Source: Myxococcota bacterium
Lineage (GTDB): Bacteria; Myxococcota_A; UBA796; CAJQPC01
DNA length: 64,000 nt
Direction: 5' to 3'
Assembly (NCBI GenBank): GCA_036229005.1
Contig: JAZAMN010000030.1
Coordinates: 32,001 to 96,000, forward strand
The position numbers and the translations under genes were made by a program. A model generated the notes under the pieces. The model made no database searches. It was not told the DNA's origin and saw nothing but the letters and a program-made list of their open reading frames with translations. Shown piece after piece: positions 61,877 through 63,687 of this stretch. The stretch's first letter is position 1, and each line of letters opens with the position of its first letter.

Positions 61877-63118
61877 ATGCGCCTGCTCCTGGTGTCCCTG
61901 GACTGGCTGCGGGACAAGGACCCCAGGGTGTCGCTGGGGCACGGGTCGCTGTTGGCCAGGCTCCAGCAGGTGGAGGGGCTGGAGGTGCTCGCGCTCCGAC
62001 GGGCCGTCAACGCTCCGGGGTTCGAGCGGCGGGAGCTCCTGGGGGCGGTGGTCGACGCCACCCGCGGCGCGCCCGCGGACCTGGCCATCGGGGTCTACGT
62101 CTGGAATGACCCGGACGTGCGCTGGCTGATCCGGCAGCTCCGGGAGCAGGGCTTTGCGGGACGCATCCTGCTGGGTGGGCCGCAGATCAGCTACGCACCG
62201 GCAGGCATCGCGCGCGTCTACCCCGAGGCCGACGTCCTCATCCGAGGCTACGGCGAGGACGCGCTGGCGCAGGTGCTTCTGTGTGAGGAGCCGCAGGCCA
62301 TCCCGGGCGTGGTCTGGCGTGAGGGGCTCGATCTGGGCATGCCGGCCCAGGTCGCCCTCGAGGCCTTGCCTTCGCCCCTGCTGACCGGGGTGCTGCCGGT
62401 GCAGGCCTTCATGCGGTGGGAGACGCAGCGGGGCTGCCAGTACAGGTGTTCGTTCTGTCAGCACCGGGAGGCTGGAGCCCGCCTCCAGCGCAGCACGCTG
62501 TCCGCCGGTCGCATCGCCGATGAGATCGAGGCCCTGGTCCAGGGCGGGGCCCGGGACATCGCGGTGCTGGACCCGATCTTCAACAGCAACCCCGACGCGG
62601 CGGCCATCCTGCGCCGCTTCTCCGAGCTGGGCTACACCGGCCGGCTGTCGCTGCAGGCCCGCTTCGAGCTCCTCAACGATGACTTCCTGGACGCCGCCCA
62701 GCGCCTGGATGTCCAGCTTGAGTTCGGCCTGCAGACCGTGCAGCGCGCGGAGATGAAGGCGGTGCAGCGCATCAACAACCTGCCCAAGGTGGCGCGGGAG
62801 ATCGAGGGGCTCCACCGCCGCGGCATCCCCTTCGAGGTCTCGCTGATCTACGGCCTGCCCAACCAGACGCTGGCCTCCTTCCAGGAGAGCGTCCGCTGGT
62901 GCCTGGACCGCGGGGTGCCGGTGGTCAAGGCCTTCCCGCTGATGCTCCTGCGGGGGACCAAGCTGGAGCGCGAGCGGGAGCGCTGGGGCCTCGTCGAGAG
63001 CGCTGGCCCCATCCCGGTGGTCGTGGAGAGCGACAGCTTCACCCGCGCCGAGTGGGAGCAGATGCGGGAGCTGGCCGAGAGCCTGATGAATCACAACACA
63101 GAGAGAGGTGCAGCATGA
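61877..63118 (+). CDS. Cobalamin-binding-domain radical SAM enzyme
   Basis: N-terminal B12-binding-like domain (GVYVWN, LLGGPQIS, RGYGE). CxxxCxxC in RGCQYRCSFC; FGLQT, LIYGLPNQT, LLRGT. Confidence 0.88.
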   Translation: MRLLLVSLDWLRDKDPRVSLGHGSLLARLQQVEGLEVLALRRAVNAPGFERRELLGAVVDATRGAPADLAIGVYVWNDPDVRWLIRQLREQGFAGRILLGGPQISYAPAGIARVYPEADVLIRGYGEDALAQVLLCEEPQAIPGVVWREGLDLGMPAQVALEALPSPLLTGVLPVQAFMRWETQRGCQYRCSFCQHREAGARLQRSTLSAGRIADEIEALVQGGARDIAVLDPIFNSNPDAAAILRRFSELGYTGRLSLQARFELLNDDFLDAAQRLDVQLEFGLQTVQRAEMKAVQRINNLPKVAREIEGLHRRGIPFEVSLIYGLPNQTLASFQESVRWCLDRGVPVVKAFPLMLLRGTKLERERERWGLVESAGPIPVVVESDSFTRAEWEQMRELAESLMNHNTERGAA

Positions 63119-63687
63119 AGCCACTGTTCATCGTCCTGGAGGCCCTGGACGGCGTGGGGAAGACCACGCTGGCCAAGGGGCTGGCGGCCCGGCTCGGGGG
63201 CGTCGCCATGAACACGCCAGGGGAGGGCCTGCGGGCAGTGTCCGGGCAGATCCTGGATGGCCTGGGGCCCAACCAGCCGGCGCGCTGCCTGTTCTACGCA
63301 GGCTCGGTCATCGCGCGGGGAGAGGAGGCGCGGGCGCTCGTGGAGGGGGGACAGACGGTCGTGATGGACCGCTACTGGCTCTCTACCATCAGCTACGCCC
63401 GGGCGCGGGGGGTGGAGGCGGCCCTGGACCAGGTGGAGGCGCTGGTCCCGGCGCCCGACGTGACGCTGCTGCTGACCCTGGATGAGGAGGAGCGGCAGCG
63501 GCGCATGCAGGCTCGGGGGTTCACCGCTGCAGATCGGGAGACGCTGGAACCGGGGTTCCGGGACCGGGTGCTGCTGGAGATGCGGCGAGGAGATCGGCGC
63601 CCAGAGCTGCTGCCGCTGGACGTGGATCTGAGCGGGGGCGACCCGGCGGAGTGCATCGAGCGGGTCGTGCGGGCGCTCTCGCGCTGA
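63115..63687 (+). CDS. Thymidylate kinase family NMP kinase (CMPK2-like)
   Basis: FIVLEALDGVGKTT P-loop, NTP, LFY, VVMDRYWLSTISY, PDVTLLL. ATGA overlap with the radical SAM gene. Confidence 0.85.
   Translation: MKPLFIVLEALDGVGKTTLAKGLAARLGGVAMNTPGEGLRAVSGQILDGLGPNQPARCLFYAGSVIARGEEARALVEGGQTVVMDRYWLSTISYARARGVEAALDQVEALVPAPDVTLLLTLDEEERQRRMQARGFTAADRETLEPGFRDRVLLEMRRGDRRPELLPLDVDLSGGDPAECIERVVRALSR

Follow-up and report, generated by a model that had tools for sequence, protein, structure and literature searches.

The B12-domain radical SAM enzyme and the NMP kinase encoded by two overlapping genes in the DNA analysed here (64,000 nucleotides, hereafter the window) have, in our judgement, about an even chance of making a probably C-methylated antiviral nucleotide analogue within the cell, by a viperin-like logic with different chemistry. 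Among the enzymes known to protect cells by way of antiviral nucleotides, viperins are the chief ones. Since the kinase is of the family found as viperin's partner, the likely product of the pair is another antiviral nucleotide, possibly a methylated one. By its profile matches the pair is a member of the catalogued defence candidate PDC-M51, itself a candidate only; new here beyond that catalogue entry are the link of the kinase to viperin kinases and CMPK2 and the solo occurrence of the enzyme.

The gene pair and its catalogue entry

The TGA of the enzyme gene and the ATG of the kinase gene overlap in the four nucleotides ATGA (Table 1), and this 4-nt overlap recurred in 24 of 27 kinase-linked rows, a count comprising 26 related loci and the window, with near-copies kept in. 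The start at 61877 is that of the closest homologues (P0003, P0005 and L001), and the in-frame ATG listed for the intergenic stretch, with GGAGG upstream, is a possible alternative. In Pfam, the enzyme matched B12-binding over residues 57-133 (E 3e-8, over the cut-off) and Radical_SAM over residues 182-342 (E 2e-15), with the motif C187-x3-C191-x2-C194. The ATGA-coupled pair divergent from tcA that an earlier note had described was confirmed by the open reading frames, the Pfam domains and the TcA-like neighbour, and all the kinase motifs quoted there are present.

Table 1. Positions of the gene pair and its features in the window.
Feature	Position	Strand	Basis or remark
B12-domain radical SAM enzyme, 413 aa (PDC-M51A)	61877..63118	+	ORF, Pfam, PADLOC, AlphaFold model, fold
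CMPK2/viperin-kinase-like NMP kinase, 190 aa (PDC-M51B)	63115..63687	+	ORF, Pfam, PADLOC, trees
ATGA stop/start overlap of enzyme and kinase genes	63115..63118	+	translational coupling probable
Trp76 of A-x-G-x-Y-x-W in enzyme	62102..62104	+	alignment to TokK Trp76, lower cobalamin face
CxxxCxxC iron-sulphur motif (C187, C191, C194)	62435..62458	+	all three 100% in 158 homologues
Kinase P-loop, residues 9-17	63139..63165	+	D12, G15, K16 invariant, 31 homologues
Kinase DRYWLST motif, then YA where Tmk has YQ	63367..63387	+	motif comparison
Intergenic stretch, divergent TcA-like gene to pair	61606..61876		alternative in-frame ATG at 61793

The divergent neighbours of the pair are a TcA-like gene and then a TcB/TcC-like gene; the fused TcB/TcC-like (2458 aa) and the TcA-like (2643 aa) genes are open and occupy 46297-53673 and 53674-61605 on the minus strand. 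Directly past the end of the Tc-like genes, a stretch at about 40600-46200 has a low G+C content (60-62%) and holds short weak ORFs only. On the 3′ side of the pair lie a convergent gene of 274 aa without a Pfam match and then genes that look ordinary by eye. The G+C content of the pair (70-72%) equals that of its surroundings, and a promoter/terminator scan of 61606..61876 found no sigma-70 consensus. The window copy is outside any defence island and lies between Tc-like toxin genes and genes of an ordinary look.

Both genes, adjacent and co-oriented, matched most of the corresponding PADLOC models: the enzyme matched PDC-M51A at E 3e-143 (residues 2-407, model positions 6-415 of 420) and the kinase matched PDC-M51B at E 1e-56 (model positions 3-156 of 191), and no difference from the catalogued candidate was found. 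These models come from PADLOC-DB 2.0.0 and belong to the PDC set of bioRxiv 10.1101/2024.01.29.577857, which, according to its section 10, was chosen as cassettes embedded in BREX, DISARM or RM systems; the Fig. 6E legend of that preprint gives radical SAM and dNK among its example domains. M51 is unnamed in the main text as available, and the figure and supplements of the preprint may bear on this. Literature searches found the term 'PDC-M51' in no paper, and found no functional study of PDC-M51, no description of the pair and no B12 radical SAM anti-phage system; the accessible part of PMC10853773 holds nothing relevant to the pair.

Ancestry and partners of the kinase

The kinase matched Pfam Thymidylate_kin (E 1e-14), and its best Pfam and PDB matches are thymidylate kinases, with no CMPK2 structure among the results of the PDB sequence search. 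Nevertheless, housekeeping Tmk identity was ruled out by several findings. Its score with TIGR00041 (dTMP kinase), 59 bits, is below the cut-off of 83, and the genome has a separate housekeeping Tmk of its own at G000:C22:55432-55989. A quick tree of 80 kinases, with a Tmk outgroup from one phylum only and accessory kinases gathered by likeness to the family of the window kinase, separated 30 Tmk proteins (the genome's own included) from 50 accessory kinases including that of the window with an SH-aLRT of 100. The window kinase carries YA where 25 of the 30 Tmk proteins have YQ or FQ, and the EP motif, present in 29 of the 30 Tmk proteins, was found in 0 of 26 M51 kinases.

Nine homologues were longer than the window kinase, and six of these are viperin-kinase fusions. 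The kinase domains of the fusions are 40-52% identical to the window kinase (three of them 48-52%), and five fusion domains fell in its subclade (support 93 and 87). In the fusions P0241-P0245, P0247 and L178 the viperin comes first and the kinase last, and at L179 a similar viperin is present in pieces. A search with two viperin-linked kinases led to animal UMP-CMP kinase 2 proteins: among eight clusters looked up, five are plainly so named, a sixth has such members and two are unnamed molluscan ones. In a second tree, likewise a quick one from which 22 rows of the 80-kinase set were left out, eight CMPK2 rows were placed with the accessory kinases and split from 16 Tmk proteins with an SH-aLRT of 100; CMPK2 grouped there with another viperin-kinase subclade, not that of the window kinase. 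Profile scores of the window kinase were 179 bits for viperin-kinases, 75 for CMPK2 and 58 for Tmk, and pairwise scores overlapped (53-77 bits for CMPK2, 63 bits for the best Tmk). As judged from these trees and scores, the kinase is grouped with the viperin-linked kinases and animal CMPK2, with which it shares ancestry, apart from Tmk. The CMPK2 resemblance that the earlier note had judged by eye was thus borne out, and the refuting outcome it had named, a kinase that groups with housekeeping Tmk and is the only copy, did not occur.

The PDC-M51B profile had matches in 39 of 401 genomes, and the neighbourhoods of the best 30 of 40 kinase places were inspected, the ten weakest including at least one Tmk. 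A radical SAM gene lay close by at 28 of these best 30 places. The B12 enzyme was present at 14 (13 directly upstream of the kinase and one distant copy 2 kb off on the other strand), viperin at four, and a Gre module at 11, where the radical SAM enzyme was seen in ten and not in one short contig; one place had none of the three. The radical SAM genes beside the kinase are thus of three kinds, namely the B12 enzyme, viperin and a Gre-linked enzyme.

The Gre module consists of four genes, encoding a radical SAM enzyme without a B12 domain (300-330 aa, with extra C-terminal cysteines), an AAA_28 kinase, a Gre-like protein whose tip carries a conserved WHDNFA, and a CMPK2-like kinase. It was found in 11 of the 401 genomes (L151 and L166-L175; genomes G292, G285, G254, G332, G227, G126, G119, G084, G054, G097 and G346), had itself no strong match in PADLOC, and is flanked by PglW/PglX (L167), type III CRISPR (L172, L175) or AbiEi (L173). 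Gre proteins function at RNA polymerase, and the Gre copy of the module may rescue the host RNA polymerase from a nucleotide analogue. At L164:6012-8626 and L165:4151-8333, a Gre-like gene adjoins the B12 enzyme and the kinase; by their gene content, these two loci appear to link PDC-M51 to the Gre module, and they hint at RNA polymerase as the target.

Fold, spread and neighbourhood of the enzyme

With the AlphaFold model of the enzyme (pLDDT 92.7), the best Foldseek matches were TokK and CysS (TMq 0.81 for TokK), followed by TsrM, AprD4, MgmA and OxsB (TMq 0.68-0.72 for OxsB). Structural re-alignment gave Z scores of 35.8 for CysS (rmsd 2.9 over 396), 29.8 for AprD4, 28.6 for MgmA, 25.7 for TsrM, 24.9 for TokK, 24.3 for OxsB and about 15 for viperins. 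Since AprD4, a dehydratase, came second and above TokK, the fold does not fix the chemistry. The best sequence matches were the methylases TokK and CysS, at 22-24% identity, and the best NCBIfam match was the KedN5 methyltransferase family (77.5 against a cut-off of 700), a score that sets aside orthology to a named member of the TokK/CysS type. By sequence and model, the enzyme resembles these methylases more closely than OxsB, and the OxsB analogy drawn in the earlier note is weaker than that with TokK/CysS in sequence, fold and Trp76.

The enzyme has a TokK-type cobalamin site and probably binds cobalamin. Its Trp76 aligned with Trp76 of TokK and is conserved as W in all 158 non-redundant homologues, and the position of TokK Ser72 is Gly. 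According to the available text of PMC9204698, Trp76 of TokK closes off the lower cobalamin face, a position taken by Asn186 and a water in OxsB and by Arg69 in TsrM, and TokK tolerates several substitutions of Trp76 with minor effects only. Near-invariant basic residues among the 158 homologues are R12, K14, R180, R298, R359, K/R351 and H196, and neither TokK nor CysS has a basic residue matching R180. These residues would fit a phosphorylated substrate if, as we infer, they lie in the pocket. The host genome has 19 B12-binding-domain matches over the cut-off, so cobalamin is probably available.

The enzyme is patchily spread. The PDC-M51A profile found it in 32 of 401 genomes and in none of the 11 in the window's own family; among 8,000 candidates, 1,482 proteins matched at E 1e-20 or better, the named ones being mostly from Myxococcota. 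A single-protein search of genome contigs returned one locus. No close homologue was found in viral contigs and plasmids, and phage records held only two, at 23-25% identity; a role in phage DNA modification was set aside on these grounds.

From 110 fetched enzyme loci, five were dropped (three missed by the gene caller and two partial). The remaining 105 comprised 27 with the kinase, 48 without it over at least 800 nt downstream and 30 that were too short. After removal of copies more than 85% identical (n=76), 24 loci had the kinase, 34 of the 58 scorable ones lacked it and 18 were unscorable, and the label required 13 changes on the tree. These numbers indicate that the kinase is optional. 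The pair, whose lack of conservation would have spoken against the earlier note, does recur with its 4-nt overlap, but the kinase is absent from most scorable loci. Viperins are similar in this respect, since 12% of the bacterial ones have a kinase and most such kinases are CMPK2-related (bioRxiv 10.1101/2023.09.13.557418, in the part available), and the optional kinase was counted for the viperin-like reading.

Three kinds of gene recurred near the enzyme among 59 non-redundant loci: 12 had a small DUF4258-like gene, seven a DUF2325-like gene and four a PIN-like gene, counts that hold partly by construction, the profiles having been built from the same loci. DUF4258 is RNase-like. The DUF4258-like profile also matched the gene that immediately precedes a viperin (L179) and one belonging to a Gre module (L173), and neither the 30 Tmk loci nor the 20 control stretches gave a match; HicA and RelE genes occur beside viperins, according to the accessible part of PMC10865869. 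The DUF2325-like gene lies directly before or after the enzyme at L001, L036, L041-L044, L047, L049 and L059, and was not found at the window's own copy. Kinase-less copies at L056, L069 and L076-L097 (G+C 35-52%), often behind an NYN/PIN-like gene, have TFIIB-zinc-ribbon and DUF1297/DUF1246 neighbours that suggest archaeal hosts.

Neighbour proteins were scanned in Pfam (290 of 294 representatives) and in PADLOC (118 chosen ones). Neighbours of the enzyme included BrxB/BrxC (L111), type IV restriction (L064), Mrr (L122, L124), SoFic (L116), Uzume with GmrSD (L101), HEPN/RES (L043), integrases and transposases, and at L053 and L054 a kinase-less B12 enzyme is immediately preceded, on the same strand, by a viperin (L054:946-1890). 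Clear defence genes were present within three genes at 6 of 20 genome loci and at 1 of 20 arbitrary 7-kb stretches, 12 of them on the same contigs (Fisher p 0.09), with defence classes judged after seeing the matches and ambiguous cases on both sides. Neighbours without a Pfam match numbered 42 of 95 at the loci and 26 of 115 in the controls (p 0.001, observations not independent). Enrichment of the enzyme in defence islands is thus modest. The earlier proposal of a defence system agrees with the listing of the pair as candidate PDC-M51; the modest size of the enrichment and the position of the window copy outside any island count against it. No Tc domains were seen beside the scanned homologues, the 71%-identical L001 included; a link to the Tc genes was rejected. 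At L123:1-9717, the enzyme and kinase stand within a cluster of epimerase, glycosyltransferase-radical SAM and PhyH genes with a sugar or tailoring look, and elsewhere P0246 is a kinase-PhyH fusion.

Proposed function, rival readings and known systems

In the mechanism we propose, the enzyme would bind cobalamin and an Fe-S cluster, its radical would attack a nucleotide, and a methyl group would be transferred to a carbon of that nucleotide; the optional kinase would raise the substrate supply or phosphorylate the product, and the triphosphate analogue would stall the phage polymerase and so act against the phage. C-methylated ribonucleotides are known from drug chemistry to terminate viral polymerases. 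A more far-reaching form, which we regard as possible but on balance doubtful, is that PDC-M51A arose independently of viperin as a second, cobalamin-dependent synthase of antiviral nucleotides, with C-methylation of a nucleotide's ribose as its reaction, and that the CMPK2-type kinase acts as a plug-in exchanged between three or more unrelated radical SAM enzymes of nucleotide warfare (viperin, PDC-M51A and the Gre-linked enzyme). If PDC-M51 acts like viperin via cobalamin, it would bring a natural nucleotide analogue and a synthesising enzyme that are both new; a product C-methylated on ribose would be a natural counterpart of methylated chain-terminator drugs, and the CMPK2-type kinase would serve several radical SAM partners. 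With no more than two genes and obvious null mutants, the unit lends itself to a direct test, and if the viperin-like reading fails, the pair is one more PADLOC candidate.

An antiviral nucleotide made without methylation, either by radical dehydration as in AprD4 and viperin or by ring rearrangement as in OxsB and AlsB, is unlikely. It would accord with AprD4 as the second structural match and the closest in size (Z 29.8, TM 0.74/0.68), with the Gly at the position of TokK Ser72, and with the action of OxsB and AlsB on dAMP/dATP (PMC13331322, as far as its available text goes), whereas the top sequence and Foldseek matches are the methylases TokK and CysS, the best NCBIfam match is the KedN5 methyltransferase family (far under its cut-off), the Y-x-W motif is of the TokK type, and OxsB has 730 aa and is 14-16% identical. 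Quite unlikely, in our view, is a defence or conflict enzyme with a target other than a free nucleotide, be it DNA, RNA, protein, a signal or pool depletion, with the DUF4258-, DUF2325- or PIN-like proteins as effectors. The kinase is lacking at 34 of 58 scorable loci, one of these small genes is present at 23 of 59, and MgmA, the third structural match (Z 28.6), is a protein methylase; against this, an NMP kinase of the viperin family is the one partner with strong conservation, neither a nuclease nor a DNA-binding protein accompanies the enzyme constantly, and homologues in viral contigs, plasmids and phage records are limited to the two distant phage ones.

We give little credence to an exported antimetabolite or secondary metabolite of the oxetanocin or albucidin kind directed against prey or competitors and perhaps linked to the Tc genes. 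Oxetanocin and albucidin are made by B12 radical SAM enzymes with one or two genes, and OxsA strips phosphates (PMC13331322, in the part accessible), whereas the kinase points to an intracellular triphosphate; the tailoring-like neighbours at L123 and the kinase-PhyH fusion would suit export, but the scan of 290 neighbour proteins found no conserved HD phosphatase, exporter or tailoring set, which leaves the antimetabolite branch of the earlier note unsupported, and the Tc domains are not seen beside homologues, L001 included. Ordinary metabolism, with a surplus thymidylate kinase next to a tailoring methylase unrelated to it, is very hard to credit: the thymidylate kinases among the best kinase matches and the 19 B12-domain matches in the genome speak for it, and the separate Tmk, the tree and motifs that exclude Tmk (YA not YQ; EP missing, 26/26), the conserved overlap and the absence of the pair from 11 same-family genomes speak against it.

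Among known systems, Ophion, compared by its description only, is likewise a radical SAM anti-phage system with proposed transcription-halting nucleotides, and differs in its PHP and PRTase partners and in a text that, in the part available, is without B12 (bioRxiv 10.1101/2025.09.30.679545). OxsB and AlsB share the B12 radical SAM fold, act on nucleotides and belong to one- or two-gene pathways. However, they are partnered by a phosphohydrolase or a second radical SAM enzyme (AlsA), and the four-domain OxsB of 730 aa has Asn and water under the cobalt; with 413 aa, Trp76, a kinase partner and 14-16% identity, the window enzyme is not a member of that group. TokK and CysS have in common with it the Rossmann B12 domain at the N-terminus and the partial barrel, the CxxxCxxC motif, the lower-face Y-x-W motif, and the GG and GE motifs. 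Unlike these proteins of about 650-680 aa, the enzyme is missing most of their C-terminal domain, has family-specific basic residues and stands in no biosynthetic cluster.

Viperins dehydrate NTPs without cobalamin, and the window enzyme differs from them in its N-terminal B12 domain. Viperin membership was rejected on this ground and because the pVip models in PADLOC gave no match at E 0.01 and pairwise comparison with three viperin domains gave E 0.07 or worse; the host genome (94% complete) has no viperin at E 1e-20. In organisation, the pair is like the viperins with their kinases and like RSAD2-CMPK2, in that a radical SAM enzyme is joined by an optional NMP kinase of the same family, fused or adjacent, and small toxin-like genes lie nearby, as they do near viperins.
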